From positions 248,001-312,000 of the forward strand of contig CAJINV010000022.1 in the NCBI GenBank assembly GCA_905178155.1: 64,000 bases of DNA, given 5' to 3'. Origin of the DNA: Amoebophrya sp. A120. Its lineage: Eukaryota; Protista; Dinoflagellata. The notes beneath the pieces are model-generated. The model worked only from the letters and a program-made list of their open reading frames with translations, ran no database searches and was not told the origin of the DNA. The position numbers and the translations under genes were made by a program. The stretch's first letter is position 1. Every line of letters begins with the position of its first letter. Below, in pieces: positions 9,610-61,188 of this stretch.

Positions 9610-10473
9610 CAAGAACAATCCTGCGGTGGTGGAAGCCTACATGGAGATGGGAAAGCGTTACACGAAAGCAATTGCGTATCGCGAGAAAAAGCTGTCTCGT
9701 CAGTCTCGTCAATTTATAATGCTGTCACCCCTTGCAGCACTTTTTTGTCATGCCCCAGGTGATGAACGAAAGGCGTCTTTCGTATGGGTTTTGTCTATCT
9801 AATGGTCTGTCGCGTCACAGATTTTGCGTGTCGTTCTGACCAAATTTGCAGGCGTGGAAGTAAGTGAAAAATCTGTGTGTCATACTGACCGAGCTGAGGA
9901 CTCCATGTCGGCGGATAGTAGGAGTTGTCAGGCCCGACGGACCCACTGTCGTGCACGATGTCCCTGGTGGCTTCGTGTCCTGCGGCTGGGCGTCGGGTCC
10001 TCCGGACGCTGAAATCTTCAACACGCAGCCTGTATAGAAGATGCAGCTGACCAAAATAAAATCACCTTTTTTTTATATGTTGAGTCTGCAAATAAAATGG
10101 TTCGGGAAGATTGTTGAGACAGTTGCTTTTTCTCACCACATCGCGAGGGATTTTCTTTTGGGCGAAGTCCGGCTGGTTCTTGAGGGAGTGAGAATGCCGC
10201 CCCCACATCGCCCTGGGAAGGCGCGGGATTGGCACGGTCAGATCTTGCCTGACCCAACGAATTGGAGCCGGCGGTAGTTCCGGAGGATGAATTCGAATGG
10301 GGTTCTTTGTGCATAGAAGTTGTAGAGCTCTCTTTCCTATTGTTGTCCTGCTTCTATTTCAATTTCAACACGGGATTATAGCTGAGTCATATAGTTCCTC
10401 CTCCTCCTCATATATACTAAGTAAGGCTCAGAGCCTTCCATGATCGCGAAGTTGGTACGAAGTAAGTATTGCC

Positions 10474-13918: not shown

Positions 13919-16900
13919 ATGGAGGACTTTAACGACCCCGTAAGACCGCTTCCTCCCGTAGCTGCTGTCGTCTCCGCCAGTCGGCTCAAGTACCTGCTGT
14001 CGGCCTCAGAAAACGTCGAAGATGAGGGGGACATTATCGATCCGAAAAATTATGCCACATCAACGACAGCACATGCACAACGACCTCCCCAACAACCACG
14101 AGAGTTCTTATTTTCCCGAGAAGTGCCAGCTGGCGAGGACAGTTGTAAAAATGCCCCTGTGCTAGGAGTCAGCATGACGAGCATCAACCTGATGCTCAAC
14201 GAAACCAACCTGAGTCGGCTCTTCGAGGATTCCAATCCGCTCGTCGCGGGCAACGAAGTTTCCAGTGAAGATGTTGACCACAACATCTTTGATCCCGAGG
14301 GCATGCTCGTCGACGACAACTGCAACTACAGTGTCGAGTCTAGTACTATCAACTGCAAATATGTCTGGGTCTGGAAACTTGTAATGCTGCGTTGGGAATA
14401 GTGAAGGCTCTGTAATGCACAGGCAAGCATGAGAAATATCTGCGCTTCTTTGTGTTGCGTTTTTCGCATGACAAGCTGCGTTTTTGCATGACATGCAAAG
14501 GGGTCTCTTCTTGGACACGCATCACAGACTTTTTGGTCATGCCAGACAAGCATGACAAGTCTCGCAATCTTCCAGACCCAGACATTTTTGCATGTGATAA
14601 GTACAACTCGGCGTAGTTCCTACTTGTACTTCCAGGAGGACCTGCAGTCATGCATGAAGATCCGACAAGTTGTATCCTGAGTAAAAACGTCCCCACACCA
14701 GAGTCAGGATGGGGATTTTGCAACACAAACCTAGGAGTTTTGGGTGTCACGCATGACAAATTGCGCTCCGCAGTGTAGTGCTGGTTAGCAAGTGCAGCCG
14801 CGTCACAGATTCATCTGCTCATCCTGTTCACAGCATCACAAATTCCAAAACACGACTGGCAATGGCTCTCATGGGGATGCGCATTACAAGTCTTCCTGTC
14901 TTTGCAAATCTGCATTACAACTCTGCTGTGGGTACGTTTTTACTCAGGATAAGTTGTAGACCGCTCAACAACATCTCCGTTCCTCTTCCTTCCCGCGACC
15001 CCCCAGGTGCCCCCGTTCCTCTACTGGCTCCTGGCGGCTATGAAGGACCCAAAACCCTACGGGGTCTACGGCTGGGGCCAAGCCACGATAGACAAGGAGG
15101 TGCTGGGCGCGGGCGGCGTTATGCATTGCAAAAGTATAATCGTACTAGTGCAAACTGCATGACAAATTTTGGCAAGAAGGAAAGTGGAATTTGTAATGCT
15201 GTTTCTCGCTAGGAAAAATATTTGTCATGCACATTTGCAAATAGTACGAGTACGATACTTTTGCACAGGATAGGCGTGTCTTCGGAGCAAAAATTTCTGG
15301 AATTGTTCGGCTTCACGCTGGATTGGACCCGGTTTCCGAAGATTTTCGTTTCCAAGACGCAAGTACGCATTGCAAAAGTATCGTACTACATATGCATTGC
15401 ATTACAAATTTCATCCTCAGCATGAGAAATAAAATCTGTAATGCGGGTCAACCTCAAGAAAAAAGATTTGTATATGCATGACTGCAATTACTATGAGCGC
15501 GATATTACTTTTGCAGTCCATAGCAAGCCCAGACCGCGAAGGGGCAGCCGACTCCCGCCACCCAGAACGGGGTGCGGGTGGGGGACCAGTTGATCATGAT
15601 AAACGGCAACCGATATCATTTGTAAAAACGTCCCCACCTCCCCAGAGTTGTAATGCAAATCTGCATGTTGAGAATGTTTCTCATGCCGAGACCCATGAGA
15701 AGCACTTTCTAGTCGTGTTTTGGGCTTTGTGATGCTAGAATCAGCATGATGCGCCAGATCTATGATGCTGCTGAGCAAGCTAGTAAACAGGATTACGCTA
15801 CGAGGGCAAGCCTGTCATGCGAAACAACCAAAGCTGGTGGATTTGTCTAGCAGATTGCCCAACTTGACTCTGGTGTGGGAACGTTTTTCCTCACAGTAAC
15901 CGAACCACGATGATTGCGACCTTTCCGGGCCGGCACGTCCACGACGCACTCCTTCAGCAGTTTGTCCAGCGGTCGGAGGCCGGCAAATCGCAGATCGCGA
16001 ATTGGATGTTCTTGTCCGGTGAAGCCAAGAAACAATACCTGCAAATCTATCAAAATGTAAAACTCCCCCTCCCCATACTGGAGCGGAGATTCGTGTAGCA
16101 TGATTTGTGACCACAAAACATGTTGTCATGCTAGAAGGCAAAAGAAGCGGATGCGGACAGTAATGCTGGGTGGCGCAGGAAAGCGCTGCATCTTCAGCAT
16201 GACAGGAGGCAACTAGAAATGGGAAACAGCACGACAAATCGCCTGCAATGAAGGCCGCAGCTGCGTCTCATGGCCTTCTAGCAATACAAGGCGACTTGTG
16301 TTGTACTCAAATACAGCATCACAAATTTCCTTTTCGATATGGGGAGGCGGGGTGATTTTTCTTTGCGATAAAATCCTGATCGAGGGGCCTGGGCTGCAGC
16401 TCGAGCGGGCGGGTTATCAAATGCAAAAATGTCTGGGTCTGGAAGAATGCAACTTGTAATGCTGCGTTTTGATGTCTAAAAAATTTGTGTTGCATGAGCA
16501 GCAAAAGGATTCTAATTTTTGCTACGCGGAGAGGGCATTTGTAATGCGGAATATGCATCAAGAATCTCTCAAAAAACCTGTGATGCTACGACATGCATCA
16601 CAGACATCATGATGGCTCATGCAAACCGTGCATGACAAGGCTCAGAATCTTCCAGACCCAGATGACACTTTTGCATTTGATACCGGTAGTAGTGCTGGCA
16701 GTGCTGGCACAACCACCTCCAACAGGACAGCAGTTGTACCCGAGTGGGCGAAGAAGAAAGGGGTATTGCCGGGTGACGCCATCGTATGAACTGCAAAAGT
16801 ATCGTACTAAGTAGTAGTAATTGCAATACAAATTAGCTCAGCTTGTTGACAAATGGGAATTTGTCATGCTGTTTTATCTTGGGATGGAGATTTGTAATGC

Positions 16901-19900
16901 ATGATTGCGATTACTACGAGTGCGATACTTTTGCACAGGATACATCGTGGTTTGCAACGATTTCCAATGTGGCGACAGCACCAGTGGGCTGGAAAAACTA
17001 CAGCAGCTGTTCAACACAACAACTTCCGACCCCACCGGCGCGTACGTGATTCTCCGACGGGAGGCCGGCTTTCCGGACGCTGTTTTGAGAACGGAAGTAA
17101 ACCTGGATCGCCCCTTGCCCTATGAACTGCAAAAGTATCGTACTAGTATAAATCACATGACAAATTTCCTCAGCATGAGAAATGAAATTTGTAATGCGGA
17201 TTTAACTTAACAGAAAAATTTGAAATGCATAAATGCGATTAATAGTGCGAGTTCTATACTTTTGCAGTTCATATGCCCGACGGCTGGATGACGGCAAGCG
17301 TTCCCATGCCTGCTGCAGCAATTATGGGAGTGTCAGGATCGAAATCGTCAAAGTTGAAATGACTTGTAATGCATAAAATGCATGACGTGAGGCGCGTGTG
17401 TTGCAGAGCAGGCAAGTAAGGCTGATTGTAAGCCTGTTTCAGGTTAGAGCTCGCGCTGCTAAGGTAGCATGAGAAAATCAGTCTTCTTTGCCTAAACAGC
17501 ATGACAAACTGGATTTAGGTGGCACCACCAACATTTGTCATGCGCCACTTGGAAACTGGGTTCCAACTGGCATCCAGTTTATGCATTGCAAATCATTTCA
17601 ACTTTGTCGATTTCGATCCTGACAGTTCCATAGCAATGATGTCGAGCGTAACCAAGGGGGAAGAAAGGCAGAGCACAAGCGGTGCTGGTAATATCTCGGC
17701 CTCCATGTCACCGGCGCAAATACAGAGCACGACGAACCCGAGCAACAAAATTTCCCCGTGGCTTTATTGGCTCCTCTCGGGCGTGCAGAAGATGGCCGAC
17801 TTCGCGCTCTACGGCTGGTCGCAAGCAACGATCGATGTGGAGTGCCTCAAGTCTTCGGGCGTTTTTTCCTCGGAGCAAAAAATGTTGGAGCTCTTCGGGT
17901 TTACGTTATGCATTGCAAATATGTCTTGGTCTGGATCTGGAAGGGTCCCAACTTGTCATGCTGTCTTTGGATTCTAAAAAAATTGTATAGCATGACGAGC
18001 AAGAGGACTCCAGTTGTTGCACTTCGGAGAAGGCATTTCTCATGCGGAGTAGGCATCAGGAAGCCGCGAAAAAACCTGTGATGCTAGGTCATGCATCACA
18101 GACATCATGGGTCAGGCAAAATGTGCATGACAAACGTTGGACTCTTCCAGACCCAGACATATTTGCAGTTGATATACGTTTGATTGCAGCAAATTTCCAA
18201 GAGTGTTCGTCTCCAAAACCCAGCCGAACACGTCGAAGGGGGCCGACACAAGGGCGACGCAGTACGGGGTCCAGGTTGGGGATCAGTTGCTGATGATAAA
18301 CGGGCAAAGGGTGACCATGGTCGCGTCTTGGCAGGGACGCCACTTCCACGACGCAATCATGGCCAACATCTTGCAACGCGTCACCGCGCAGAAGCCGCAG
18401 GTCGCGCACTGGCTGTTTTTGACTGGGGTAGGGAGGAAACAGTATTTGCAGATGCAGATCACGTATGAAATGCAAATATGTCTGGGTCTGGAAAGTTGGG
18501 ACTTGTAATGCTAGCTCTACATTACTGGAGGGAAATCTGTATTGCATAAGCAACAAAGGACGCAGCCACTTTTGTCATGCAGAAACGCAGTTTCTCATGC
18601 GGACTGCCTATGAGGAAGCATTCTGGAAAGTTGTCATTCTGTGCTGCATTCGGAAGTGTTTCCATCATCCACATTTTAGCATCACAGGTTTCCAGACCCA
18701 GACAGAGTTGCATTTGATATCACGCACAAGGATGAAGTCCAGCTGGACGTGAAGAAAACCGATTCCGGTCGCATCGTGAAATATCAACTGTAAAAATGTC
18801 TGGGTCTGGAAGAGTTCATGTTTGTCATGCTTGTCTGGCATGACTCTTAAATCTGTCATGCACGCTACCCAAGAGCTGCGCTTTTCTGTGATGCAGAAGC
18901 GCAGTTTGTCATGCAGAATAGGCAACACCTAGGAGCTCAGAAACTTGTCATGCTGAGCCAGCATTTGTAGCCTCATCATGAGACGCTACGCAGCATCACA
19001 AGTTCCCAGACCCAGACATTTTTACATTTGATATGAAAGATTCGCATTTTGGCGCTCGGATTTTGAGAAAAGACGACGAAATAGTGGCGGCGGGCGATTT
19101 TTTCTGCGGCGAAAGCGACAAGGAGGTATGGCGTCCTCAACTGTTACATTATCAACTGTTAAATGAATATGTGATGCAAGAATAGCAAAACTGAAAGCGG
19201 GAAGATTGTGCCTTTTGCATGACAGACTTGGCACAGATTCTCGGTCTGTTTGGGCCTTCCTGAATTTGTCATGCGCAGCAGCTTGATCGCGTCGAATCTG
19301 ATTCTTGGAGTTTTGCATGACAAATCATGTATACAGTTGAGAACGTAACGTCTGAGAACGCCATAGGAGGGGCTGGCGAAGTTGGAAAATCTGATGCTTT
19401 CATCGAACAACGGCGGGGAGGGCCAGTACGTGCTAGTCCGGCGAAAAGCCGGGTTTGAGGAAGAGGCTCTAGCCAACGAGCTGAAACTCGACCGCCCTCT
19501 GCCGGATGGGTGGCTCGCAACCGGAAACGTGCCGATGCCACCACCGGGATCAACAAATACTGCGGTGGTCCTCGCTTCCTCCTCTCCCACAGGAGGAGCA
19601 CAACAACTGCAAGACATCAGCCAGCTAGGTAAAAGTCAAGCCAGTGCAATTGCGGGTGCTGCGAAGATTCCGCCCTGGCTATCAAAAGGAAAAATCCCCC
19701 CTCCCCATATCGAAAAGGACTAAATTTTGTGATGCTGATTTGTGGTCACAAACAACCTCTGTCTTGCCTTTAGGGTAATGGGAGCAATGTGGCGCATTCC
19801 ACAGCCAGTCACAGTCTGTCATGCGCTTTCGACTACTGCAAACCTGTTTTTCGTGCCTTATTGCTAGCCTTCTGCACATTCGGACAGGCTTAGAAAATGC

Positions 19901-22900
19901 CGCCAAGCACTTTCTGCAAGACAGATCTGATTTGTGTACGCAAATCCAGCATCGCAAGCTTCTTTTTGATATGGGGAGGGGGGATAATTTTTCCTTACGA
20001 TATTGGCTTTACTGGCTCCTCTCCGGTGTGAAGGACATGGCGGGGTTTGAGCTTTACGGGTGGTCCCAGGCAACGATTGACGTGGAGTGCCTGAAGTCTT
20101 CGGGCGTTTACTTATCCTGTGCAAAAGTATCGTATTCGTAGTAATTGCAGTCATGCATTACAAATATCTTCCCTAAGCTAAATCCGCATGACGAATTTGA
20201 TCTCTCATGCTGAGGAAATTTGTAATGCATTTATACGAATGCGATACTTTTGTATTGCATATTACTCCTCCGAAAACAAGATGCTCGAGCTCTTTGGGTT
20301 TACCTTCGACTGCAGTAGATTTCCAAGAGTTTTTATCCGAGAAAAAAACGTTGTTATTGTAAATTTGTGATGCGCAACATGCAAGACGATTGCGTCTGTC
20401 ATGCTTGGCATGCGTCGTAGGGTCCATTAAAGGGCGTGCTCCCGTACTATCTGCGCATGACAGGTTGTTGCTGTCATGCCAGACAAATTTGTAATGCTGT
20501 TCCTCCAAAATTAATAGTTACACCGTACAATGTTTGTTTCTTGGATAGTTTTCGTCTCCAAGACGCAGGCCAAAACGGCGAAAGGGTCCGACACAAGAGC
20601 GACACAGTACGGGGTCCACGTTGGGTATCAAAGAAAAAAAGGTGTTTCTACCGCTACACATTTGCTCTTGGAGTTTCATCTGCATCGCAAATTTTCTGTG
20701 GCTGAGAGTAGAGAAAACGTGCAAGAAGATCTTAAGGGATGAAAATACGTAGGAAACAAAGCTCCCAGGCCTATACGGCATGACAGAGGTTGAGGTTGTC
20801 TCTATTGCTTGGTCTGCAACACAATGTCGTGTAACTGTCTGTAACACAACTTCTTTCACTGCATACGGGGGATCAGCTGTTGATGATCAACGGGCAAAGG
20901 GTGACCATGGTCGCGACTTTATCAAATGTAAAAATGTCTGGGTCTGGAAGATTAGAACTTGTCATGCTAAATCTGAATCGTGCGAAAATCTGTGTTGCGT
21001 GAGTACCAAAAGCTGTCCGCTTTTCACCAGGTTGAGAGGGAGTTTCTCATGCAGGAAGGGCATGATAGAGACCTCAAAGAATCTGTCATGCTGGGGCTCG
21101 CATTCCAGACCTCATGGGTCATGGAAAACCTGCGTCACAAATCTTGCATTCTTCCAGACCACCCAGACACTTTTGCATTTGATAGACTTGGCAGGGACGG
21201 CACTTTCACGATGCGGTGATGTCAAACATCTTGGAGCGTGTGATGGCGAAAAAGCCCCAGGTGGCGTACGAAAGTGCACAACTGCCCCTGCCCCTCATTT
21301 GTCATGCAAAATTCCGAATCCACACTTTGCCTGTTACCACAGATAATTGCATGACAGATTCCGGAATCCAAAACAGTACGTACAATCGATCCTCTAGAAA
21401 TTTGTCATGCAAAAGCTGCATTTTTTCCAGCGCGTGTGTTGCCGTTCCTGCAGCACAAATGAGGGGCAGGGGGAGTTGGGCACTCTCATATGACACACTG
21501 GCTGTTCTTGAACAGCAGTGGTAGGAAGCAATATTTTAAGAACTGCAAAAGTATCGTATTCGTATAAATGCATTGAAGTGAACCGGTACCCACGGGTGTT
21601 GACCGATCGACCTATTGCCAGCTAGGGGAGCACCCATGCGGTGGCAGGATCCAGCGCCCCTAGGTCGGGGGCGCTCCTGCCTTAGCCGTATGGGACCCCG
21701 TGGGCAGAAGTATCCACTCGCGCGCCGCGCCCGTTCTAGTTAGGGTCCATCTTCGATTTTTCTTCTCTTCACCAATTCGACAGGTCAAGCAAATCATTTC
21801 ACGCAGTTCGCTCCGGCTACAGTGATCTACCTAAACTTCTATTTTGATTTTACATTGCAAGGTGGTGATAAGTTGAGACACTATTCACCAGCTATTTACA
21901 AGCAGGAACATAGATAGTACGTTTAAACAGTTACTCGCTCGCCTAAAGTAGAAGCGAGCACCCGATTGATTTTACATTGCAACGTACAAATGCATTACAA
22001 ATTTCCTCAGCATGAGAAATAGAATTTGTAATGCGGATTGTGGTTAAGAAGGAGATTTGTAATGCATGACTGGGATTGCTACGAGTGCGATGCTTTTGCA
22101 TTTCATACATTTGCAGATGATGATCACGCACAAGTCGGAATTGCAGCTCGACGTGAAAAAATCGAAATGCAAAGTCACCGCGGATTCCCATTTCGGCGCC
22201 AGGATTTTGAAAAAAGACGACGAAATCGTTGCGGCAGCGGACTTCGTTTGCGGCGAAAACGATAAAGAGGGACTGGCGAAGCTGGAAAAACTCGTCGCGA
22301 ATAACGGGGCTGAAGGCCAATACGTGCTCGTTCGCCGGAAAGCCGGTTTTGAGGAGCAAACTTTGAAGGCCGAACTGAAACTCGACCGACCGCTGCCGGA
22401 TGGGTTATCCTGTGCAAAAGTATCGCACTCGTATGGCAATCATGCATTACAAATCTTTTCCTTAAGGGAAATCAGCATTACAAATTTTATCTCTCATGCT
22501 GAGGAAATTTGTAACGCATCTATGTATACGAGTGCGATACTTTTGCAATGCATATGGGTGGTTGCTCGGCAACGTGCCCCTACCGCCGGACTGGGAGAAA
22601 CAAGGGGGGAGTAGTAAACAAGGAGGAGGTCTTATCGCAAGAAAAAACTGTTTCACTGTGAACTTGTGATGCAGAGAACGAAGCACCAAAGTGTTTGTCT
22701 TGCTACACCTGCAAGACATTGGATCTTCAAGCGTGTTTTCCCTTGGAAAGCGCGCATGGCAAATTTTCCGTGTCATGTGTAACAAACTTGTGATGCAGAT
22801 CTTGCAAAACCACCACAGTGAAACAGTTTTTTCGTGGGATAGGACTGACATCCTCCACCTCGAACATAATTACCTCCGCAGCGGCGCAACAAGAACAGAA

Positions 22901-25900
22901 GCAGCCGCAGCAGTCTGGAGGCTCCACTTTAACTGCTAGTGCTTCTACTTCTTCCACCACCCCGCCGCCCTGGCTGTATTGGCTCCTCTCTGGTGCGAAA
23001 GACATGACCAATTTTGAGCTGTATGGCTGGTCACAAGCTAGCATCGACGTGGAGACCTTGAAATCCTCTGGCGTGTATTCCTCCGAAGCGAAAATGCTGG
23101 AGTTGTTCGGATTTACCTTCGACATCAGCAAATTTCCGAAGGTGTTCGTTTCCAAAACCCAGGCGAAAACGTCGAAAGGGACCGACACACGAGCCACGCA
23201 GTACGGGGTCCATGTGGGGGACCAATTACTGATGTTAAACGGACAGCGGGTGACCATGGTCGCGACCTGGCGGGGGCGGCATTTTCATGACTGTTTGATG
23301 GCAAACGTGTTAGAACGCGTCGAGGCGAAGAAGCCGCAGGTCGCGCACTGGCTTTTTCTGAACAAAAACGGACAGAAGCAATACCTCCAAATGCAGATCA
23401 CACACAAAGACGAGGTGCAGCTGGAGCTCGGTAGTATCCTGTGTAAAAACATCCCCACCCCAGAGTTGTAATGCAAAATGGCATGCCTAAAATGTTTCTC
23501 ATGCGCAGCTCCATGAGAGACATTTTCTCCTGCTATCTGGAAGCTTGTGATGCTGGAATCAGGATAAGGCAGTCGATTTGTCATGCGGCTGCACTACCTC
23601 AAACAGCACTACACTACGAGTCCAATAAACTTGTCATGCGAAACAGCCAAAACTTGTTGATTTGTGCAGCCAAAACCATATTGACTCGGGTGTGGGGCCG
23701 TTTTTACACAGGATAAGTAGTGGAGGTTCTTCTTCCAAAAGCACCAACTCGTTGAAAAGTACCAAAATCCAAAGAGATTCCCACTTTGGCGCTCGAATCT
23801 TGAAGAAAGACGACGAAATCGTGGCTGCGGGTGATTTATGCACTGCAAATATCCCTGGATGTCTGGAAGGATGCAAGGTTTGTCATGCTTGTCTGGCATG
23901 ACTGAAGAGTTTGTGATGCGTGTCCAAGAACAAGTAGAGACCCTTTTGCTTGTCATGCAAAAACGCAATTTGTCACGGGGAAAGCGCAACACAAAGTAGC
24001 ACAGATATTTCTCATGCTTCGCTGTCCATTACAGAGAATTCACTACTCACAACTCAGCATTACAAGTTTCCAGACCCAGATGAAATATTTGCATTTGATA
24101 TGATTTCTATTGCGGGGAAAACAACAAAGAAGGTTTGCAGAAATTGGAAAAACTCCTTCTCCAAGGAGGGTCGTCAACGTCATCTGGAGGGAGCGGAGGT
24201 GTGGGAACCTACATCCTGGTTCGGAGGAAAAAGGGTTTTGATATCCACAAAAAAACAACCATGATCTTCCCTATCCAATTTGTCATGCAGCCCATGTATG
24301 AAGTCCTGCTCCTGTGTTTGTCATGCATAAAATGCATTTGGTTTCGGATGGTTGTTTTTGCCTGGATATTTGAAAAAGAGGTTTTGAACTCCGAGGTCAA
24401 ACTGGACCGGCCGGTTCCGGAGGGGTGGTTGGCGTCGAATGTAGTTGTGCCATCAACTTCTTCTACCCCGGCAGCAGCTGCTGCTGCTGCTTCCGCAAAA
24501 GTTGTGAATGCCGGGGCGGCAACTGCAACAGCACAAGCGCCTCCAACCGGTGGCAGTAGTTCCCCCACAGCAGGTGGAGCAGCAGCATCAACATCAACTT
24601 CCCCCGCACCAACAGGGAAAGTGCTTTACACCCCCGACCAAGGTCCCAAAGTCACCCTCGTCGCGCCCACCAACGCCCTGCCGCCCGGAGCGAAGAAAAG
24701 TGGGAAAGCGGCGCCGTTTCTGTTCGCGTTGCTGATGAATTCCATGTCTTTGACCAAAGCCGGACTGGTCTACTGGGAGCAAACCACGATTGACAAAGAA
24801 GTGCTGTTCAACGGGGCACAGAACGGGTTAACGCCGAAGGAGCGCATATCGCACGAAAAAACTGTTTCACTGTGATGATTTTGCAAGATTTGCTTCACAA
24901 GTTTGTCCTACATCACAGAGAAAATTTGCCATGCGAGATTCCGAAGGGAAAACACAACTAAAAATCCATTGTCTTGCATGTGTAGCAAGACAAACACATG
25001 TGTGTTCCGTTCTATGCATCACAAGTTTACAGTGAAGCAGTTTTTTCTCACGATAGCGCATGGCGAAACTATTCGGCATGGAGCTGGACTGGACCCTGTT
25101 TCCCCTGTATCAACTGCAAAAGTGTCTGGGTCTGGAAGAGTCGGGGCTTGTCATGCACATTTTGCAGGATCCGCGAGGTCTGTGATGCTGGTGCTAGCAA
25201 CACAGATTTTTTGAGAGCCTTTTGATGCTAGTTACTCATGAGAAACGCCCTCTCCGCGTGCCAAGAGCCGAGTCCTCTTGCTGCTCATGCAACACAGATA
25301 TCTTTAGAATCCGCAGACAGCATCACAGGTTCCACTCTTCCAGACCCAGACACTTTTGCAGTTGATACCCTGGTAAAAGTGACGAAAGTGATCGGGAGTA
25401 AGCAGAACCCGACGCGGGCCTTCAATTGCGGGGTCGAAGTGAACGACTACTTGGTCATTGTCCACTACTATGCAATGCAAAAGTATCGTACTAGCTGTAG
25501 TAGCATACATTGCATGCGTGCATGACAAATATCTTTCTAAACCTGAAACAGCATTACATTTTACAAATTCCACTTCTGTTCTTGCCGACATTTGTGATGC
25601 AAGTTATACTTTACTAGTATGGTGCTTTTGCATTGCATAACTACCAACGCATGACGATGGTGATGCAGTGGAAGGGTGTCGACCCCAACGACGCGATCCT
25701 AAACGTGATCGGAAAAGAATACCAAGCCGCGGATATCCTGTGTAAAAACGTGCCCACCCCATAGTCAAGCTGGGACTCTGGCAAGACAAATCGAGCATCT
25801 TTGAGACTCACGCATGACAAGTTTGCCTACGCAGTGTAGTCGTGCCTGGCTAATTCAAACGCATCACAGAAGATCCAGTCTGTCATCCTGATTAGCGCAT

Positions 25901-48300: not shown

Positions 48301-51300
48301 ATGCTGCTCCAGGTAACCAAACCACAGGATCGACCCCGTCGAACCTTCTTGCGGGGTTACTGGGCAACGTTCGTGACAGCTATAAGTTTGCGACATCTAC
48401 TACTTCGGGCGGACTAGGGGTGGAGCGGGCTGCTCTTGTCGGAGCTGGTACAACTAACGTCAATGACCGCAATGCTGCGTCTTCATTCTTGTCTGATGAT
48501 CAGCTGATGAACAACTCAAATTCGTCTTTCACCAACGCACGGCTGGTCGGAATCGATTCTATCGGGTTTTCGAAATCTATCTCCACCAGCACCCAGCAGA
48601 AAGTAGAGGTGACAGACGTCGAACAAGAAGAACCAGAAGCACATTTGGCGAACCTCTCGTCTGAAGTCCTGAACGGCAGCACAGTCGTCATCAACGGTGT
48701 CGATTTGAGCACGGGGCGCATCGCACCGCCACCCGAGCCGGTTGCTCTTTCAACAAATGATATATTTGCAGGAGGGAAGAAGCAGAATTTTTATGCGGAA
48801 AGTTGTACTGGGGCAGGCGTTCTTCTTAGCGAAGAACTACAGGTGGGAGACACGACGACCACAAGTAAAGGTGGAGCCAACATGTTTACTAGTGCACCAC
48901 CGGGGGATGCCGCCGCCGCGGGAGCGGGACCTTCGCATAATAATAATCTCAGCAACAATGTTGACAAGAGCATCCGGGTTTCTATTGACGATATCTCCTC
49001 CATTCGCGGCATGAAAACCTCGCTGTTGTCTCACAGCCTAGATTATGAACTGCAAATATGTCTGGGTCTGGAAGCTGCATGGAAGTTTGTCATTGCCATG
49101 CTCGGCTGGCATGACAGACTTCAACTTCTCACTCTGCGATGCATGAACAGAAAAAAAGGCCCATTGCCTGTCACGGAAAAGCGCCGCGGTTTGTAATGCG
49201 CAAAACGAAACACAAAGACAAAGCCCAGCTCAAAAACTTGTCATGCTTGGCTGCGTATTGCAGTGCTGCGCCCACCATTCACGTATTTGCATCACACCCA
49301 GACAGATTTGCAATGCAGTTAGATTTGGAGCGAAAAAACAGCAGTTCCTTCATCTCCCCACCGGTTTTCCGACCTCCCAGCAGGAATGGAAGTGTGAATC
49401 AGGGATACAAGAATTTGAATTCCTCCAATTCCAACTCTAGGGCGACCAAGCCGGGCTTCGCCTCTGTCGGGGCGAGACCGAGGGCGGGAGGCGGACCAGG
49501 GCCGTTAGGGACCACGTCGGCCACGGGGTCGAGTAGTAATAGCGCAGGAGGCGGTGCAAATACTCGGACGACTACGCCGGTTTTGTCTTCCTCTAGCTCC
49601 TATGCATTGCAAAAGTAACGTACTAGTATGAATTGCATTACAAATTTTCGCAAGAAGAAAAGGTGCATTTGTAATGCTGTTTTAGCTTTGGAGGAAGATT
49701 TGTCATGCATTTTTGCAATACGAGTACGATACTTTTGCACAGCATGGCTCCACTTCGAAACTACGCATTCGCCAGCCCCGAGTCGGAGGGGTTCCGATTG
49801 TAAGTCGGCAGGGGAGATCTTCTGGTGCGGCGACTAGTATTACACATGCCCCCGCAACATATTCATCTCAGCATTCTTCTTCTTCCAGAAATCTGCATCT
49901 GCCAGTGCGCATGGGGCGAACAAGCGGCGGGAGCAGTAGTACCATCCCAAGCAGCTCCGCACAGAAACTTCACTTAGCGGCGCCTGGTGCAGCACAAGCT
50001 GTTTCTACTTCCTCAGCCGATCACAACTCCAAAGCGGAGATGAGTTCGGCTAGTAAAGGTGTATCCGCTACGACCACGCCCTCGACAAAAGAGCCCACAG
50101 TGGGCAGCGGGCTGAGGGCAACTACACCAGGTGGATCCTCATCCTCTACCATGATGACAAGTGGGTTGCTGCTTGGTCTATCCACAGTACTATCGAATTT
50201 CCCGTACTCGACAACGTCTACAAGAAATTCCTGCGTTTCTGCATGGCACATAGACCTTTCTCTAATCTTGATCTATCCTATTCTAGATCGTATTCAGCAC
50301 GTTTTTAACAAGCGGTGCGTGTGACTGTGAGATTCGGGATCATGTTCATGAAGAATTATTCAAATTGTGATATTGTATGTGGACGGTAAATTTGCGTTGC
50401 ATATTGTGCAGGCAAGAAAAAATCAGAGAAGAACCTGATCACAACATCGTCTCTCGATTTCGGAAAACTCGCGACAGGTACGACGACCAGCTCTATTGAA
50501 ATAGAAGAATCCTGGCGGGTTATTTCTGCCAGTTTGGATACTGGTGATATGATCAGGAACAACCGGTATGGAGCTCTGAATATTGCGAGTGGAACTACAA
50601 TGCCAGGCAGTGCTGCGGCCTTCCACAATTATGCCGGCGTGAAGAAATCTTCCGCGACCTCGACCTCCGATTTGCTGCAGCAGTCTGTCATTTCCCATTC
50701 ACAAGACCGCGGGGGCTGCAGGTCCCCCCTGGACAGGTCGGGTTTTCAGCCGTCCTTTATCCCCATGGCACAGAGGAACATTCAAGCGATATCCTGTGAA
50801 AAAACATTCCCAAGAATATCCCATAGAAGTTGCCATGCCTGTTTGCAATTGCAGGAGCATTTGTAATGCGCATCCCCATGACGAGACGCACTTGCGAGCG
50901 TGTTTTGGAACTTGTGATGCTGTAGAAAGGATAAGAAGATCGATTTGCTATGCGGCTTCCGCCTTGCTAAACTGCGTTGTGTATATTACAGCCTGCAACC
51001 TGTCATGCATGACTCCCAAAGCTCCCAGCTTTGTGTTGCGAAATCCCCATTGGCAACTCTGGGGTGGGGACTTTTCTACATAGCATAAGCGAAAGTCGAC
51101 ACGGGCCTGAGCAATTCATCTAATATGTCGAATAGCAACACACCAACCCAAATCTTCAACACAAACAACAATCCGAGTAGAGCCACTGCCGCTGCATTTG
51201 TGTTCGGTGGAGCCGGGATAAAAATGAGCGGCGTTGGTGGTGCAAGTGGAAGTGCAACTGCAGGCCTCTCTGCACGAACGACTCTGAATATTAAACCTAA

Positions 51301-53717
51301 ATCCACCAAACTACTGCTGGGGGGCGACCCCAGTGCAAAAATAGGTGCAAAAACTTCAGCAATCGGGAACTGCTCTACTGGGCAGCAGCTCCCGCCAGGT
51401 GTTGTTTGTTCAACAAGCCTTCCGGAGGAGCCGTCTGGTGGCGGAGGGACCACGACGACTGTGAGGGCAACGACCTCTTCCGCGTCCGCCCCGGGAGCTC
51501 TTGCTAGTGACTTGATAGGCGCTGGTGGAGGCACTAGTACCAGTACAGGCACCCGAGCAGGAACTACTACGCCACATCAAGTGCAAGTCGCGGTCCCCGC
51601 TCCTATACACGTGAACCGGCCAGTCAGCCGCCGCGCTACCGCCAGCACGGCCTCGACCTCCGCCGCGCAGAGCCGCCGGTCGACTTCTACAACGAATCTC
51701 CGGGGAGGAGGCGGGGGAAGTGGTACTACAGCCACGGGGGGCTCTGTTGCCAACCTGCGCGCAGGAGGTGATCTTCTGGGAGCCTATGGATTGCAAAAAT
51801 GTACGGGTCTGGAAGATTGCAACTTGTAATGCTGTCTTTGGATTCCAAAAAAATCTGTATTGCATGAAGACCAGCAACAGGACTACAGTTTGTGTTACGC
51901 GGAGAGGGCATTTGTCATGCGGAATAGGCATTAGGAAGCCCTCTAAAAATCCGTGTTGCTAGATCATGCATTAGAGGCATCAATCATCATACAAAATACG
52001 CATGACAAGTCTGCATTCTTCCAGACCCAGACATTTTTGCACTTGATAGAGCAGGTGCTAGGCCAAACTCTTCCCGACCCAATAAAGCAGGCAGCAGTGC
52101 GAGCAGCGTCAACCTCTTACGTGGTGGTGGGGGCCACAATTTTACACCGTCCCACCCTTACCTGTCCACACAAGTTTACAAAGCGCGGAACAATACTACT
52201 AGCGGCACGACGCCCACGACGAGCTCGTCTTTGACGCCGAATTTGAAAAATAGACCCCAATCACAACGCACACTGCAGATGATGCAAGGTAGAGACCAAC
52301 ATCATCAGCAGAAAAAATTTCGCCCGACGTTCTCGGATAGGAGAAAGCCAAGTAGTGGCAGGGTCGTTGCATCTGGTACATCGACTTCTTCGCAACAAGC
52401 GAGGGGATTTTCACTCGATCGGGGAAACAACTTCAAAGGAAGCAATGGCGGTGCGCAGCTGAGAACTGGGGCGGGTGGTATAGGGAATTATAACTATGGC
52501 GCGATCAAGGGCGGAAACGTTGGACACGCGGCGCAGAGCAGAAATATTAATTTTCACAACAACTCTTCCACTACGCAACAAGATCAATATCTTCATCTCC
52601 AAGGAGCACAGACAAGCATGAGTGCTGAGATTTCGGCGAGTACGCGAAAGGTTCACCAGAACTTGTTTGAGGAAATAATCCGGCGGAACGCGACCTACGG
52701 GCAACTGCTGCAAAAAATCAAGCAAGCCTACGAGCAGGAACTGGACCGGAAGATGGCGATAGTATATGCATTGCAAAAATGTCTGGGTCTGGAAGAATGG
52801 AAGCTTGTGATGCGCATTTCAGAACACAGAAAAAATCTCTCATGCATAGACAGCATAAGTTGCCCACTTTCGGTCACCAAAATGAGGGATTTGTCATGCG
52901 GATTCGGCATTGCGGAAGCTTTTCGAAGTCTGTGATGCTAGAGCTTCCATGCCAGACCTTCTGTGTCATGCAAAAACAACATGACTCTCCCAGACCCAGA
53001 CATATTTGCGTTTGATAGAGTACCTGCTGGAGGAACTGGGGGCAAGGGTGGCGGGAAAGGTACTTCCTACGTATGTCGGAAGAACAAGCACAGATTGTTT
53101 TTATTTGGTCTGTGTATAGCAAAGTCAGTCACGTAGAACTAGGAGTATGGATGGTAACTAACTAACATCATGTTGAACATGAAGTCAAGATGTAGGTTCA
53201 CAACAACGGAATAAAACTTCGTCCAAAAAAATAATAACCCACAGCTCTTCACGACCAACACTTTCACCACCAGGACAGCACCCTGACCCGCGACTATCTT
53301 CTCGCGGAGCGGCGCAACGAGAACGCGAAACTAGAATTAGAGAAGCTCACGAATGACTTGAGGCAGGAAAGCGATAAGCTACAGAAATCGCAGAAGCTTT
53401 TCGAGTACACCCTCGACCAACTGCAGAGACGATCGCCGGCCCAGCGGTCGGAAAAATCCTTAGCGTTGCTCTCTTCCATCGAACCCAGCGGCATGAACGA
53501 ACTAGACACCGAGGACGGCCAGACCCCAGGTGGGCACATTCTTTTTTCCGAAAGCAACTATTTAAACAGCAAAATGGACAAGACCAACTCGGTCAACATG
53601 CTCTTCGACGCGTTAAACGGGATGGACAACAGCTTCTACTCTGCCGGAAATATCACGGGAACTTCGATTACGCGTTGCAAATATAATGATGATTTCTGGA
53701 CGTCTGGAGAGTTGTGA
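45320..53717 (+). CDS. Large S/T/G/A-rich low-complexity protein with C-terminal coiled coil, possibly TSNAXIP1-N-like; start uncertain
   Basis: Continuous frame after removing 8 introners and GT-AG introns 50161-50411 and 53071-53273; segment KVHQNLFEEIIRRNATYGQLLQKIKQAYE resembles TSNAXIP1_N from memory, needs an HMM check. Confidence 0.75.
45690..45984. mobile_element. Introner, family F-like
   Basis: AAAAATGCCCCCACCCCC..GGGGGCGGGGGCAATTTT, TSD CGGCA. Confidence 0.9.
46100..46351. mobile_element. Introner family A
   Basis: TAC..ATG, TSD CCAGA. Confidence 0.9.
47233..47496. mobile_element. Introner family A
   Basis: TAT..ATA; right ACAAA copy displaced by 3 nt; frame kept either way. Confidence 0.85.
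49044..49319. mobile_element. Introner family A
   Basis: TAT..AGT, TSD TAGAT. Confidence 0.88.
49601..49746. mobile_element. Introner family C
   Basis: TAT..ATG, TSD GCTCC. Confidence 0.9.
50790..51087. mobile_element. Introner family B
   Basis: TSD AGCGA. Confidence 0.9.
51785..52048. mobile_element. Introner family A
   Basis: TSD GAGCC/GAGCA. Confidence 0.9.
52765..53017. mobile_element. Introner family A
   Basis: TSD TAGTA/GAGTA. Confidence 0.9.
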
Positions 53718-53760
53718 AGATGCTCCTGATGTGTGGAAGTTGTAGATGAACTTGAAGAAC

Positions 53761-54655
53761 TATTGAAAGAAAAAACTGTGTTAGTGTAGGTGTTGGAAAA
53801 ATCACTACTTTTTTTGATATGCAAAACTAAAAAATTCTCAAGCTGCGGCGCAATCAACGACCTGGTATGTGTTGACGTTTATAAGGTGAATTTATATAGT
53901 CAAAACTAGCTACGGCTGCTGCGGTATATGTGAATAGTTAAGGAGGCAGGACTCCAAAAGTCCGAACGCGGAAAGTATAAGGAGGCCGAAAGTTCCAGAA
54001 CCCGCGCGCGAACGGCGTTGACTGCAATTCGGGCAGGGAAAACAGAAAAGTGAAAGTGTAGGCCACATTCCGGAAAAGGGAAAATGACGAGTGTAGCAGA
54101 GAAACTCTTCTCCTTGGGGGGGTCGAAAGGACGTCCAGAAATCGCACTACACTCGTTCGGATCTCTTTTCCAAGATGGCCATTTACAGTGATTCTTTTTT
54201 CTTTTTATAGGTGGGGATTAGGAAAGAGAAAATTGCCAGTGTAGCATTTTCATTATCGCGCTGGGGGGGTGGTCGGGGGGGGTCGAGAAAGTGCCTCGAT
54301 TTCAACGCGACCTGAAGAGTTGGCTTTGCGCTTACAATCATAAAATTATCTTTTCCGCCTCCAATTCTTCGGACTTTTCTCTTCTCAAAATGAAAACGCA
54401 ACAAGGGCCGGCATGGAGGAGTACTACGACGATGCCCAGCGGGTTTCGAAGCAGAAACATAAGCCCTGCCTCCTTAACTAGCTAAAGACAATTATTACCG
54501 AGGCAGCCGCTAGCTACTTGTATTCCAAGCACCACAACACAGGCAGCATTAAGAAAACCGGACTTGCCTGCTCTTGAAAAAATCTTGAGCCTCCGCTATT
54601 AAAAAATATCGCACTTTCTGAAATACCTACACTAACACAGTTTTTTCTTTCAATA
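53761..54655. mobile_element. 895-bp non-autonomous long-TIR DNA transposon with introner-type ends
   Basis: 31-bp perfect TIR TATTGAAAGAAAAAACTGTGTTAGTGTAGGT, patchy extension to about 190 bp, perfect TSD AGAAC. Confidence 0.9.
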
Positions 54656-54848
54656 AGAACACAGCACTTCCGAACTACGCACGGAAGCATGACACGCTTG
54701 CAGAATGCCTTCTATTACGCAGTTCTTGTCCGCATCATGAGCTCCTGCGCACAGAAAAATAAATGTAAGGCCAGCAACGTATTTACACAATTACAAGTTC
54801 CAACTTTATCCCAGAACCAGGCATAGAAATTTGCACTCCTGGATATCG

Positions 54849-57800
54849 ATGCTCGGGACGAACAACACGATCAACACAAACAACACCACGCTGCACAACA
54901 TCAACTCGAAGTTGGAAGTGCAGAAGGTGAAGGGCTCGAAGATAAAGCTGTCGACTAACACTAGCATCAGCAACAACGACAACTCAAGCAATAACTTAAT
55001 GCTGGCCGAGCCGACTCCGGCGATGCTCGATGAGAAACAGAAGGAGCTGTATGACAGTGCACAACTCCCCCTCCCCCTCATTTGTTTGTCATGAGCAGCA
55101 ATGCAAACACCAGCACACGTGGAGCCTCGGCATGACTGATGTAGTACTGTTTGGGCTTCAGAATCTGCCATGCAATAAACAGTGCCACGAGGCAGCGACT
55201 GGGTTTGGTGTTTTGCATGACAAATGAGGGGGAAGGGGAGTTGTACAAATTCATTAGCTGATGAAACAGCCAAGAAACGAGTTGGATGGGGGTCGTGTGG
55301 AAAATTTTGTCGGTGACAGGTAAAGATAAGTACTCATATTGCTTTTACTGCCGATGCAATGCTGGTCTAGCGCACTGTATGTCTATGGCAACGCAGACTG
55401 ACTGCAGTATATCCTTGCGGGTGATATTTTGCCGCATGGTGTCATGGGCTAATTTTTCTAAGCTGCGAATAGCATGCAGGAAAATGTTATGCAACATGGT
55501 ATGATAGACGACGTAAAATAGTGGTTTCAATACAAATGATCATGATTTCGCAGGAACGTTATAACGTTGTATGAAAAATCAATATAAACGACAAATACAC
55601 AGGGTCACGGCCCAAGTCATTCACGGTTCTCCGGAATTCAACATGCCGACTGTGCACCAAATAAACCACGACGGGGGAGCCTCTATGCATTGCAAAAGTA
55701 TCGTACTCGTACTAAAACTAATCGCGTTCCTGCATTACAAATTTCTTGCTCACGTTAAGTCCGCATTACAAATTTCATTTCTCATGCCGAGGAAATTTGT
55801 GATGCGCTTCGTGCTGGTAAGATAATTTTGCAGTGCATAGCCTCCATTTCGCAGCAAAACAGCGCAACGAAGAACAACAACAGGATGAATGTTCTCGCGA
55901 GTCCGAATTCGCAAGAGTCTTGCGAACTGCTGAACCAAGCGATACTGAGCTCGCCGGTTTCCGATTTGAGCTCAATCACGGGTGGGTGTGGTGCTGGTGC
56001 AGGTGGTGTCTCAGGACTGACGAACAACACACTGATATTAAACAACGGAGGAGGTGTAGGTGGTACTAGTGGGGCACAACTTTTATCCTCCTCGTCGGGA
56101 GTAATAAACAACAGCGGGAACAACAGCAGCTCGAGTCTTTTGATCCCAACGCTTTCAGAAGGTGGAGGGAATGGGATCCCACCTCCGCGAGAGCCGAACT
56201 CTACCATCGGAACGAATCAACAGCTGAATCGGACAAGCTCTTTGACGGCATTGCAGGGCAGCTTCATGCAGGAGGGACAAATTCCGATTGGTTTTGGTAG
56301 CCGGCCACAGGAGCAGCTGCAGGGAGCAGAAATAAACGTGTCTAGGGCGGGAGCAGACAGTATCCACAGTAAATTTCCCGTACACGTAGAAATGCGGTCT
56401 CTGCATGACAAAACTTGGCTTCGATCCTAGTTTAGCATGACAAGTTTTACGCTCCAAAATGGTGAAATTTGTGATGCATCTTGTACATATACGGGAGATT
56501 TGTATTCCATAGACAGCAACACAAATTCCGCGACTTTGAACTCGAATTTTAGTACGACGCCAAACATGTTGAACCTAACGCTGACGCCGAACATGCTGCG
56601 AAACGAAATCGGCAGGGGCAGTGCGGGAGTTGTTGGCACGACACTGTCGAACGGCATGACAGATACCTGCTACGGGGAAATGGACCAGATGATGGAAGTA
56701 CCCTGTGCAAAAGTATCGTACTCGTATTGCAATCATGCATGACAAATCCACCTTTTGTTAAGGTAAATCCGCATTACAAATTTAATTTCTCATGCTGAGA
56801 AAATTATTTGTAATGCATTTAGGCGAGTGCGATACTTTTGCAGTTCATAGGAAGCGTCGCACTACAAAAACCAGGGCACTAGGCCCTCTTCCTCGGTTCC
56901 TGCAGAGGAGCTTGTTCACAACGGTACTTCTACGAGGCACAACAAACTTGGAGCTGCCAAGAGGCTGCAGTCAACTCAACAACAAAGCGCCTCTACTTCC
57001 TCTGCGGTTGCAAGCGGACCGCCTGCTGCAATACCAATACAAATTCAGCAACAGCAGAATATTGCGACGCAGCAAGTTTTTTCGTCTGCAGGCGTAACAA
57101 TAAATCCTCGTGGTCCACCAGCACCGCCCGACATCGACAGTTCGCTGCGTACGTTGTCACCCTTGGAAACGCCGGAGAAAGTTTTGAGCTTGAATGCCAA
57201 GGCGCGAATGAAACTCGGTGTGGAAAACAAAGTGGATCGCTACGTCCAGGAACTGGAGATGGAGGACGAGGAAGCATCTTCGGAAAGCTGTGGTCCTCAC
57301 CACGGTGCTGGACGAGGACCTGCTGCGGTGTTAACAATCCCGAAGATCCAGGAGCCGCCCGAGGAGGCAGCAACTACTTCCGGGGCCAATCCCAATGCCA
57401 ACTGCGAGGATATGCATGGCAAAAGCATCGCACTAGTAGAAACCACATCACAAGTTTTTTCATTCGAGTACTAGAACAGAAATGCAATTTGTCATGCTAG
57501 TTCAGGTGGTAGAATCATGCATAACTACAAGTAGTACGAGAGCGATACTTTTGCAATGCATAGAGGAGCTGCGAGAGCAATACCACTACGCCTCGGGCTC
57601 GCCGTCGTTTCGCGAAGGTGCGACGGCACCGGTTTCCCGTACAATTTTTGAGATACTTGATTTATTTCCTGAAATTGTCAACATGCAGGACACGCAGCAT
57701 GATGATGATCGTCTTTGTTGTTGATTTTTCGCGCATTACAAAGTACTACTTAAGGTGCCAAAAGCCTTAAAAACTTACTCTGAAAAGCCTCCGAAGCCGA

Positions 57801-58867
57801 TTCTTCTGTTGAGGGTGGTCCGCGCTTCGAGCAGCGCGTCTTCCATCCAAAAATCAAGAGGCCGGACTTCATTCCAGTTCTTGATTTGAACAACCTTTCT
57901 GCCGAGGAGTCGAGTTACGAGAGCGACGAGGAGGAGGAGGAGGATCCAGAGGACCACGGCGATATGCATTGCAAAGGAACTCTCGTATTGCTAAGTAGAA
58001 ATTGCATTACAGATTTTCTCAGCATGAAAAATTGAATTTGTCATGCTGTTTTGCCTTCTTGTAAAGGAGATCATGTATATCTGCAATTTGTACTTCTAGT
58101 ACGAGTGTGGTACAACTTTTGCGCAGGATAGTCGATGCTGAGGGGGAACTCGACGACCAAAATCTCAGCGAGGCAACCATGGACAACGCGCCTATGTATC
58201 CACAGAAATAACGAAAAGTACGGGCATTCCCATCTTCCGTATAGTTTGCATGATCAATACAGACTCAGGCCCGGCTTCGTGGCCGCGTTTTGCATAGCAA
58301 ATAGGAAGATCAACTGGCGGATAAGAAAAGTTTTCTTGTGGATACGAAGGAAGAGGACGAGGATGACCTGGAAGAACTGGATCAAGGTGCTGGAACATCA
58401 AGCCTCTCACGTATGAGAGTGAACAGCCCCCCTTTTCCCGCCGTCCTCCCTCGTTTGTAAATGCAAAATACCAAATTCATAAACTATATCCTGCCTGTAA
58501 ACACTGTCAGCATGACGAATTTTGGAACCTCGTCCTCGAACAGTTGCACTCCAATCCTCCCGGCTCGGCAGCTTTATTGTGATTGTCACGCTTCATCAGC
58601 AATTGCCTGTGTTACTCCTGTGTGTGCCCTACATGATCACGACATGAGAGGGACCACGTCGAGAGGGAGCTGCAGCTGTTGTGCACTTTCATATCACGAC
58701 CAGCGCCTCCAGTTGTGGAGCTCGATCTCGGATCTAGCAGCGGCGACGCAGATAGTGGGCGTAATTATGACTACCAAGAAAACGAAAACCACGGACACTA
58801 CGCGAGCGAAGGCGAGATCGAAGAAGAAATTGAGGAGGACATTGAAGCGGAAGTAGAAGACGAATAA
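54849..58867 (+). CDS. Hypothetical N/S/G-rich protein with acidic C-terminus; start uncertain
   Basis: Continuous frame after removing 8 introners and GT-AG introns 55320-55602 and 57618-57787; ends EEEIEEDIEAEVEDE-stop. Confidence 0.72.
55050..55255. mobile_element. Introner family G
   Basis: TAT..ATT, TSD AGCTG. Confidence 0.9.
55684..55839. mobile_element. Introner family C
   Basis: TSD GCCTC. Confidence 0.92.
56361..56511. mobile_element. Introner family L
   Basis: TSD GACAG. Confidence 0.92.
56699..56849. mobile_element. Introner family C
   Basis: TAC..ATA, TSD GGAAG. Confidence 0.92.
57411..57562. mobile_element. Introner family C, diverged
   Basis: TSD GAGGA. Confidence 0.9.
57963..58130. 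mobile_element. Introner family C, diverged
   Basis: TSD GGCGA/GTCGA. Confidence 0.85.
58197..58344. mobile_element. Decayed introner, family K-like
   Basis: TATCCACAGAAA..TTTCTTGTGGATA, TSD CTATG/CGAAG; removal restores the acidic frame. Confidence 0.65.
58412..58693. mobile_element. Introner family G
   Basis: TSD TCACG. Confidence 0.9.
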
Positions 58868-61184: not shown

Positions 61185-61188
61185 AATG

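Follow-up and report, generated by a model that had tools for sequence, protein, structure and literature searches.

Introner elements of Amoebophrya sp. A120 leave a gene transcript with exactly one repeat copy retained and are likely cut at one fixed register

How are introns removed from a transcript when their borders carry no GT-AG signals? The question is raised by a 64,000-nt stretch of the genome of the marine parasitic dinoflagellate Amoebophrya sp. A120 (contig CAJINV010000022.1, positions 248,001 to 312,000; hereafter the window), in which two gene models, designated gene 1 and gene 2, are interrupted by 75 inserts that are bounded by terminal inverted repeats (TIRs) and flanked by 5-nt direct repeats (DRs). 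These inserts belong to the introner elements described by Farhat et al. 2021 (PMC7789003), and the question of their removal concerns tens of thousands of elements of that published class. We report that the elements are removed from the gene 1 transcript as the element plus 5 nt, without GT-AG, and that they are likely cut at one fixed register, such that the intron reads N-UAU…AUA-NNNN and four letters of the left repeat copy together with one of the right are kept.

Assignment to this already known class, which the sequence-only reading of the same DNA had proposed, is borne out by protein identity and by anatomy. The product of a gene upstream of gene 1 matches an annotated A120 protein (P0001; 100% identity for window 6943–7539), and its gaps are elements of the same type (Table 1). 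In the sections of PMC7789003 covered here, A120 introner elements measure ~240 nt, have an inverted repeat (IR) that begins with TAT and continues with seven looser bases and then an A run, lie between direct repeats of 3–5 nt (5 bp in the legend of Fig. S19), are mixed with canonical introns, and were validated by RNA-seq. The position table of the 150 element ends in the window matches this IR description (TAT, seven looser bases, at least three A), and the two sets of elements also share organism, repeats, size, and coexistence with canonical introns. The same sections report no clear splice signature and leave the border inside the repeat unknown; added here are a border bounded at one register, a measured polarity of the element ends, and removal in both orientations. 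A fixed register, end polarity, and the sub-terminal motif described below were not found stated in the portion of the literature on Amoebophrya introns within our search, outside which most subscription papers lie.

A scan for TAY…RTA ends combined with an exact 5-nt DR and a TIR found ~50 elements; a strict criterion gives 47 matches within 13919..58867, compared with 0–2 for every one of 30 shuffled sequences. Once the scans were relaxed and the frame was repaired, the total rose to 75 (median length 252 nt) between 14347 and 58693, with 57 in gene 1 and 18 in gene 2. TAY…RTA ends are present in 69 of the 75 elements, the exceptions being one TAA start and the ends ATG (twice), ACA, AGT, and ATT, and the DR is perfect in 53. 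The sequence-only reading had given 73 elements, every one with TA(T/C)…(A/G)TA ends, TIRs, and a 5-nt repeat, in three genes that also held six GT-AG introns. The TIR-bounded class with its repeats stands, but the count rises to 75 plus one nested 895-bp element, neither ends nor repeats are uniform, the genes reduce to two models, and five canonical introns are counted, two in a transcript contig and three as predictions. That most repeats cannot supply GT-AG in any register holds, for only 5 of the 75 can; at the register inferred below, GT-AG occurs in 2 of the 75 and in 6 of 188 oriented elements from other loci. We did not file the elements as canonical U2 introns because they do not combine a GT/GC donor with an AG acceptor.

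Deletion of each element with one DR copy gives stop-free models at all 75 sites, as had been claimed. The frame alone does not prove the loss of 5 additional nucleotides, because the open reading frame (ORF) of gene 1 is also kept when the element is removed with 2 nt (57/57 sites) or 8 nt (55/57 sites), and an in-frame GT…AG pair lies within 30 nt at 55/57 sites. A retained element breaks the ORF at 56/57 gene 1 sites, so the cell must remove the elements.

Removal is observed in a contig of 11,382 nt assembled from sequencing run X3, one of four runs (X3–X6) whose RNA nature is our guess and was not recorded. The contig has the spliced length predicted for 24402–43831, with 22/22 anchors, and spans the last 31 elements of gene 1 and two GT-AG introns, all of which are absent; we treat it as spliced because it also lacks the two GT-AG introns. 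Eight element joints are listed singly, each skipping the element plus 5 nt, and the remaining joints are fixed by segment sums. Removal without GT-AG and with exactly one DR copy, as proposed from the letters of the DNA, is thus shown at 31 elements, and neither retention, use of a cryptic GT-AG site, nor preservation of both or neither repeat copy was seen at any of them. Both orientations of two element families lie inside this contig. Junction coverage extends to gene 1 only, with gene 2 uncovered in the runs examined; the raw-read runs X9, X10, and X11 gave zero exon coverage of these genes and are no test of removal.

Where inside the repeat does the cut fall? We denote by k the number of letters of the left DR copy that are kept in the transcript, which can be read wherever the two copies differ; joints were placed leftmost, as the cases with perfect DRs show. 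Eleven sites are informative in RNA. The value of k is at least 1 for the elements that start at 21537, 23435, 32779, and 41887, at least 2 at 32057 and 38989, at least 3 at 22633 and 43113, at least 4 at 30371, and at most 4 at 39920 and 42107. At 30371 and 32057 the result is the same in runs X3 and X6. A GT-AG register is available at 22633 one letter into the DR (k = 1) but is unused in the transcript, and no GT-AG register exists at element 42107..42413. Protein P0001 adds k of at least 4 at 400, of 2–4 at 5950, of at least 3 at 9288, and of at least 2 at 756, 7951, and 8952, with four sites uninformative. For a gene in locus L062 of a related strain, the A120 ortholog favours k of at least 4 at L062:1063 and of at most 4 at L062:104; only 1/4 junction tests in L062 matched the A120 protein exactly, and for L062:104 the residue was taken from the ortholog by visual inspection. 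A single value, k = 4, is admitted at 19/19 informative sites (11 RNA, 6 annotated protein, 2 ortholog). Were k random from site to site, the chance of agreement on any one value would be 0.064 for the RNA sites alone, 0.003 with the annotation added, and 0.0014 for all sites. In the part of Table S4 of PMC7789003 covered here, the nine top A120 motifs are all NT- (T in second place) and the nine top motifs of strain A25 are all TT- with a repeat that starts TTA; both strains therefore place U at +2 and A at +3. Separately, we considered a deficit of repeat mismatches at DR positions 3–4 in the window (9, 9, 3, 2, and 6 along the repeat; p = 0.011, post hoc) and discarded it, as it was not repeated in 188 elements (13, 5, 7, 8, and 9).

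The elements insert both ways, and their two ends should consequently decay alike unless the direction of transcription matters. We compared the ends of 273 oriented elements, comprising the 75 of genes 1 and 2, the 10 of the upstream gene, and 188 from other loci. Of 319 elements detected in other loci, the flanks sufficed for 306, and 188 cleared the strand threshold of a codon model that, when applied to the window elements, called 62 correctly and 1 wrongly and left 12 uncalled. The element detector recovers 54/75 window elements, makes no false calls, and has the same bias toward intact ends on either strand. Position 1 is changed at none of the 5′ ends and at 12 of the mirrored 3′ ends (p = 0.0004), position 3 at 11 of the 5′ ends and 1 of the 3′ ends (p = 0.006), and positions 4–16 show no asymmetry. 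The two asymmetries are opposite in mutational direction, and the polarity runs the same way in the window and in the independent loci. These change counts identify U+2 and A−7 of the inferred intron as constrained bases; by conservation counts in the inferred register, U+2 is found in 273/273 elements and A−7 in 272/273. Stem pairing alone predicts that GTA, which forms a U·G wobble, is tolerated more than TAC, which forms a C·A mismatch, and the reverse is found (1 versus 9). The constraints at the two ends are like those expected of a spliceosomal donor and of a candidate branch A, and on these sequence grounds a relaxed spliceosome appears to fit better than a purely hairpin-guided pathway.

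Our preferred reading, to which we give slightly better than an even chance, is that the elements are non-autonomous introners resembling miniature inverted-repeat transposable elements (MITEs) and are cut at the fixed register N-UAU…AUA-NNNN, likely by a relaxed U2-type spliceosome. A cut-and-paste transposase would insert the elements with a 5-bp target duplication. The left TIR would supply U+2 and A+3 of the donor, like the GUA donors of ordinary introns in the same genes (GTA begins all five canonical donors), and +1 would come from the target. At −7, the A that opens the terminal AUA would act as branch nucleotide or equivalent anchor, and the acceptor would be set by a distance of 4 nt past the element, not by an AG. 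By bringing the ends together the stem probably assists, and it may stand in for U1 small nuclear RNA. Because one letter of the left copy and four of the right are removed, the mRNA would be restored exactly in either orientation. As far as the respective papers are covered here, U2, U4, U5, and U6 were found in A120 and U1 was not (PMC7789003), a relative with canonical introns has U1 (PMC12005148), and in tunicates a U2-type spliceosome handles introns that are mostly non-GT/AG (PMC13326754). A bolder version of this reading is tentative, and we place it somewhat short of an even chance: a U1-less spliceosome would need only U+2/A+3 and a branch A supplied by the transposon IR and would find the acceptor by counting 4 nt. 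Any element with TAT ends and a 5-bp duplication would then be a scarless intron at any site and in any orientation, and A25 would have reached the N-U-A donor with a different repeat. A fixed register makes exact predictions, with the intron 5′ end one base before TAT, the 3′ end four bases after ATA, and the branch at the first A of ATA. It would correct the intron borders of the A120 annotation and explain how elements can insert anywhere without changing the protein.

Several observations weigh against the preferred reading. The RNA sites by themselves give only the value of 0.064 for a single register, the tight bounds derived from annotation and orthology are indirect, the RNA upper bound at 39920 is also readable as GT-AG, and the motifs of Table S4, as covered here, may reflect aligner bias at ambiguous junctions. 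The asymmetry at position 3 weakens to p ~0.09 once corrected for 16 positions, and 7/12 changes at position 1 yield ATG, in which a U·G pair is preserved, as a stem model would also allow. Neither G at +1 (23/75 elements in the window and 60/188 in other loci) nor AG at the acceptor (3/75 and 17/188) is preferred, although a spliceosome with residual preference might show such a bias. Near the acceptor, predicted canonical introns lack a fixed A: by-eye counts in 18 predicted GTA…CAG introns place A at −7 in 3 and at −8 in 6, so that a branch at −7 would be peculiar to the elements. Lariats, circles, and linear excision products were not observed; assembled contigs cannot reveal them. Finally, strong end pairing is the rule, with a median end duplex of −30.3 kcal/mol versus −9.0 kcal/mol in controls.

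That pairing is central to a strong rival. The sequence-only reading had proposed a second, structure-guided pathway alongside the ordinary spliceosome; our data do not establish one, and we consider it less likely than the preferred reading. A separate, spliceosome-independent machinery would recognise the TIR stem, cut 1 nt beyond its 5′ edge and 4 nt beyond its 3′ edge, and ligate the exons, a scheme that has been proposed for the nonconventional introns of Euglena. In predicted folds the ends pair in 69/74 folded elements, both orientations are removed, and +1 and the acceptor dinucleotide are free. According to the sections of PMC12501133 and PMC11282704 covered here, Euglena introns are similarly staggered (N3CDG…CHGN5-6), depend on their inverted repeat, and are released as circles. 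Against such a pathway, the element arms have no excess of G·U pairs over A·C mismatches (87 versus 88 in the window, 149 versus 145 in other loci), although unequal ends of the master element could dilute this test. The ends are under different constraints, donor-like and branch-like, with polarity at positions 1 and 3, which a dedicated enzyme with base preferences could still produce. Moreover, in 9/85 elements the end pairing does not exceed that of the top 5% of controls, and two of these (26583 and 27053) lie within the spliced contig.

It is very unlikely that removal is real but its register varies from site to site through repeat-guided joining anywhere in the 5-nt duplication. Perfect repeats hide the register in 53/75 elements, the RNA sites alone are compatible with variation at the level given above, and the legend of Fig. 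3 in PMC7789003, one of the parts covered here, calls the splice sites variable relative to the hairpin; set against this are the 19 informative sites that all admit one register and the agreement between X3 and X6. Slightly less probable still is that the elements are cut from DNA in some life stage, like the internal eliminated sequences of ciliates, and that the transcript derives from cleaned DNA. The TIR and repeat anatomy would suit such excision, and a single DNA-type run (X1) was examined. However, 8/8 listed X1 pieces cross exon-element borders with no differences at a depth of 39–47, two of them spanning whole elements, and 0/15 X1 joints among those listed (2898 others) skip an element plus 5 nt, with the caveat that X1 is perhaps the window's own sample and not independent. 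End polarity is also aligned with transcription, a pattern not expected from excision at the DNA level. Least probable of all is that the skipped forms are template-switch artefacts of reverse transcriptase, for which a hairpin with a short repeat is the usual substrate, or products of cryptic splicing at the nearby in-frame GT…AG pairs, given that a retained element nearly always breaks the ORF, that one contig lacks all 31 elements at exact offsets, and that the available GT-AG at 22633 is unused.

Other systems resemble the A120 elements in part, as judged from the portions of the cited papers covered here. Nonconventional introns of Euglenids likewise lack GT-AG, form a TIR stem, are flanked by repeats like target site duplications (TSDs), coexist with conventional introns, and have the longer 3′ overhang in their staggered signature (PMC12501133, PMC11282704). 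They differ in a CDG/CHG motif at +4 and about −8, whereas at the inferred register of the A120 elements +4 is T in at least 261/273 and never starts a conserved CDG. Pairing in Euglenids was tested by knock-in and circles were reported; on the Amoebophrya side there is pairing potential derived from sequence. MITE-derived introns of Fritillaria borealis carry TIRs and a TSD, mostly escape GT-AG, and are processed by an adapted U2-type spliceosome (PMC13326754, PMC11282704), but they prefer AG-AC/AG-AT ends and have a conserved U1, whereas in Amoebophrya +1 and the acceptor are free and no U1 was found. Introners of Micromonas, Aureococcus, Symbiodinium, and Florenciella share the splicing of one TSD copy, the unchanged mRNA length, and the anatomy of non-autonomous DNA transposons (PMC9860276, PMC12130899). 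In those introners the element or the TSD provides GT/GC and AG, either carried along or co-opted, which is not so in the A120 elements, apart from the few counted above.

Table 1. Coordinates of gene models, canonical introns, and introner elements in the window (joints and piece starts refer to transcript sequences; for elements with differing repeat copies, DR is given as left/right).
Feature	Coordinates	Strand	Details
Gene 1 model	13919..43501	+	5010 aa, 57 elements, 2 GT-AG introns
Gene 2 model	45320..58867	+	2652 aa, 18 elements, 3 predicted GT-AG introns; predicted from sequence
Upstream gene	114..10274	+	Identical to annotated Amoebophrya sp. A120 protein P0001; 11 exact blocks
Upstream gene gaps (ten elements of the same type)	136-320, 400-703, 756-5788, 5950-6469, 6543-6938, 7544-7901, 7951-8770, 8952-9220, 9288-9609, 9677-10140
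Canonical intron GTATTT…ATCAG	32414..32620	+	Piece offsets, runs X6 and X3
Canonical intron GTATGA…ATCAG	42577..42886	+	Transcript joint 42575>42886
Predicted canonical intron GTATGT…ACCAG	53071..53273	+	Frame restoration, one of 11 options; coding-score search agrees
Predicted canonical intron GTAAAG…CACAG	55320..55602	+	Frame restoration, one of 8 options; coding-score search agrees
Predicted canonical intron GTACAA…AAAAG	57639..57787	+	Frame restoration, one of 10 options; coding-score search agrees; borders uncertain
Element, differing DR copies	22633..22841	+	GGTCT/GGACT; left letter at position 3 kept, k at least 3; piece starts 22845 in X3
Element, differing DR copies	30371..30628	+	GCCGC/GCCCC; left letter at position 4 kept, k at least 4; pieces start 30633 in X3 and X6
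Element, differing DR copies	39920..40166	+	GGTGG/GGTGA; right letter at position 5 kept, k at most 4; joint 39914>40167, 4 letters fit either side
Element, differing DR copies	42107..42413	+	AGGAA/AGGAG; right letter at position 5 kept, k at most 4; joint 42101>42414, 4 letters fit either side
Gene 1 elements 1-15	14347-14599, 14673-14951, 15120-15272, 15364-15522, 15614-15898, 16048-16370, 16415-16682, 16785-16942, 17121-17273, 17323-17632, 17907-18174, 18464-18719, 18782-19033, 19127-19365, 19680-20002
Gene 1 elements 16-30	20113-20261, 20334-20547, 20626-20865, 20920-21184, 21267-21490, 21537-22107, 22406-22554, 22633-22841, 23435-23715, 23837-24100, 24242-24368, 24847-25055, 25108-25367, 25469-25639, 25734-26015
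Gene 1 elements 31-44	26234-26518, 26583-26804, 27053-27313, 27990-28219, 28364-28497, 28788-29136, 29337-29502, 29563-29769, 30052-30313, 30371-30628, 31127-31275, 32057-32334, 32779-32919, 33035-33270
Gene 1 elements 45-57	35864-36014, 36431-36631, 36687-36965, 37560-37836, 37943-38224, 38989-39243, 39920-40166, 40631-40915, 41139-41353, 41479-41780, 41887-42047, 42107-42413, 43113-43426
Gene 2 elements (18)	45690-45984, 46100-46351, 47233-47496, 49044-49319, 49601-49746, 50179-50403, 50790-51087, 51785-52048, 52765-53017, 53669-54845, 55050-55255, 55684-55839, 56361-56511, 56699-56849, 57411-57562, 57963-58130, 58197-58344, 58412-58693

The elements of the window fall into families of 19, 14, 9, 5, and 3 members and three pairs, and the four largest contain both orientations (6/13, 7/7, 4/5, and 4/1). 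A search of metagenome contigs for the TIR pattern gave 177 stretches, and the 174 loci used are all on contigs JACKZZ01; 69/75 window elements match metagenome loci at 69–97%, and the pattern was unmatched in viral contigs. Among the 319 elements of other loci, 254 have a perfect 5-nt DR, the detector having demanded at least 3/5 matching letters. In the raw RNA run X9, ~170 reads match only the start of one element (20920–21006) and have foreign flanks; they probably represent a related element retained in another transcript.

The elements have the features of MITEs or other non-autonomous TIR DNA transposons, namely TIRs, a repeat of fixed length, no coding capacity, and both orientations, and the 5-nt DR is, as deduced from the repeat itself, a putative TSD. 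The elements, 18.6 kb in all, contain the motif CATNACAA/TTGTNATG 157 times, versus once in the 26.3 kb outside them; it is present in 66/75 elements, mostly 31–47 nt from the ends, and is common to families that share no other similarity. We propose CATNACAA as a candidate transposase binding site. No transposase family was found among 18 and 81 scanned ORFs. The 895-bp element (53761..54655) is nested inside element 53669-54845 and has a near-perfect TIR of 34 nt and its own DR, AGAAC; it has no relative in the other loci, no transposase-like ORF, and no coding match, and neither it nor four longer TIR elements of other loci contain a long ORF or a Pfam match. Element 21537-22107 contains a different kind of mobile sequence, the insert 21566..21996, which is flanked by a 9-nt direct repeat with copies 422 nt apart and in which no TIR was seen. 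Copia-type integrases make 5-bp duplications, and by analogy an origin from such an integrase would fit the 5-bp repeats. TIR elements with Copia/Gypsy-related ORFs are described in A120 in the sections of PMC12130899 covered here.

The gene 1 product has N-terminal internal repeats, a long low-complexity middle, and a coiled-coil end. Its start (14990–24420) encodes approximately four copies of a ~250-aa unit with a weak PDZ-like score (E = 0.016, below the cut-off). Positions of elements differ among these copies, indicating that the elements arrived after the duplication. A protein search with one gene 1 exon, from which proteins over 2000 aa were left out, gave no homologue, and gene 2 has a weak TSNAXIP1_N match (E = 8.6e-05), likewise below the cut-off. 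No Rfam match was found within the window. Four window introns had hinted at an invariant A at −8 in canonical introns; the pattern did not recur among 52 noisy predictions, of which 18 GTA…CAG introns were inspected, and was abandoned.

Larger and composite sequences accompany the elements. The gap 756–5788 of the upstream gene is likewise an element of this type, 5.0 kb long (TAT…ATA, DR ATGTG/CAGTG). It holds a 1068-nt copy identical to 16140–17207 and a 352-nt copy that is 98.9% like part of the insert at 21577–21985, separated by four copies of a 35–60 nt linker (near 1715, 3293, 4486, and 5588); the copies reflect genomic DNA that was captured recently or else an artefact of the assembly. 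An imperfect inverted repeat of ~740 nt (4646–5383) lies within the same element. Gap 7951–8770 has TAT at two possible starts, 7951 and 7974; in the predicted fold the 3′ end pairs with the inner TAT, whereas the annotated protein requires the outer one (7951) as donor, and the gap may be a nested element. Elsewhere, longer elements with perfect 5-nt repeats show apparent internal insertions (L033:632-1465, L037:4314-4770, L069:571-1051, and L070:3862-4492), and some of this set adjoin short tandem CAT or GAAT runs. In locus L062, an element-free ORF of 378 aa on the minus strand (L062:1841-2974) lies between two element-bearing genes and is flanked by a long direct repeat near 1830–1885 and 3555–3607; it has no Pfam match at E 1e-4 and contains a YIGST motif, which we take to be reminiscent of GIY-YIG nucleases. 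Near the end of the window, a tandem array at 61180–61750 has a 21–28 nt unit that resembles the TIR interior, and a C-rich tandem repeat (62600–64000) begins inside an element that starts at 62522.

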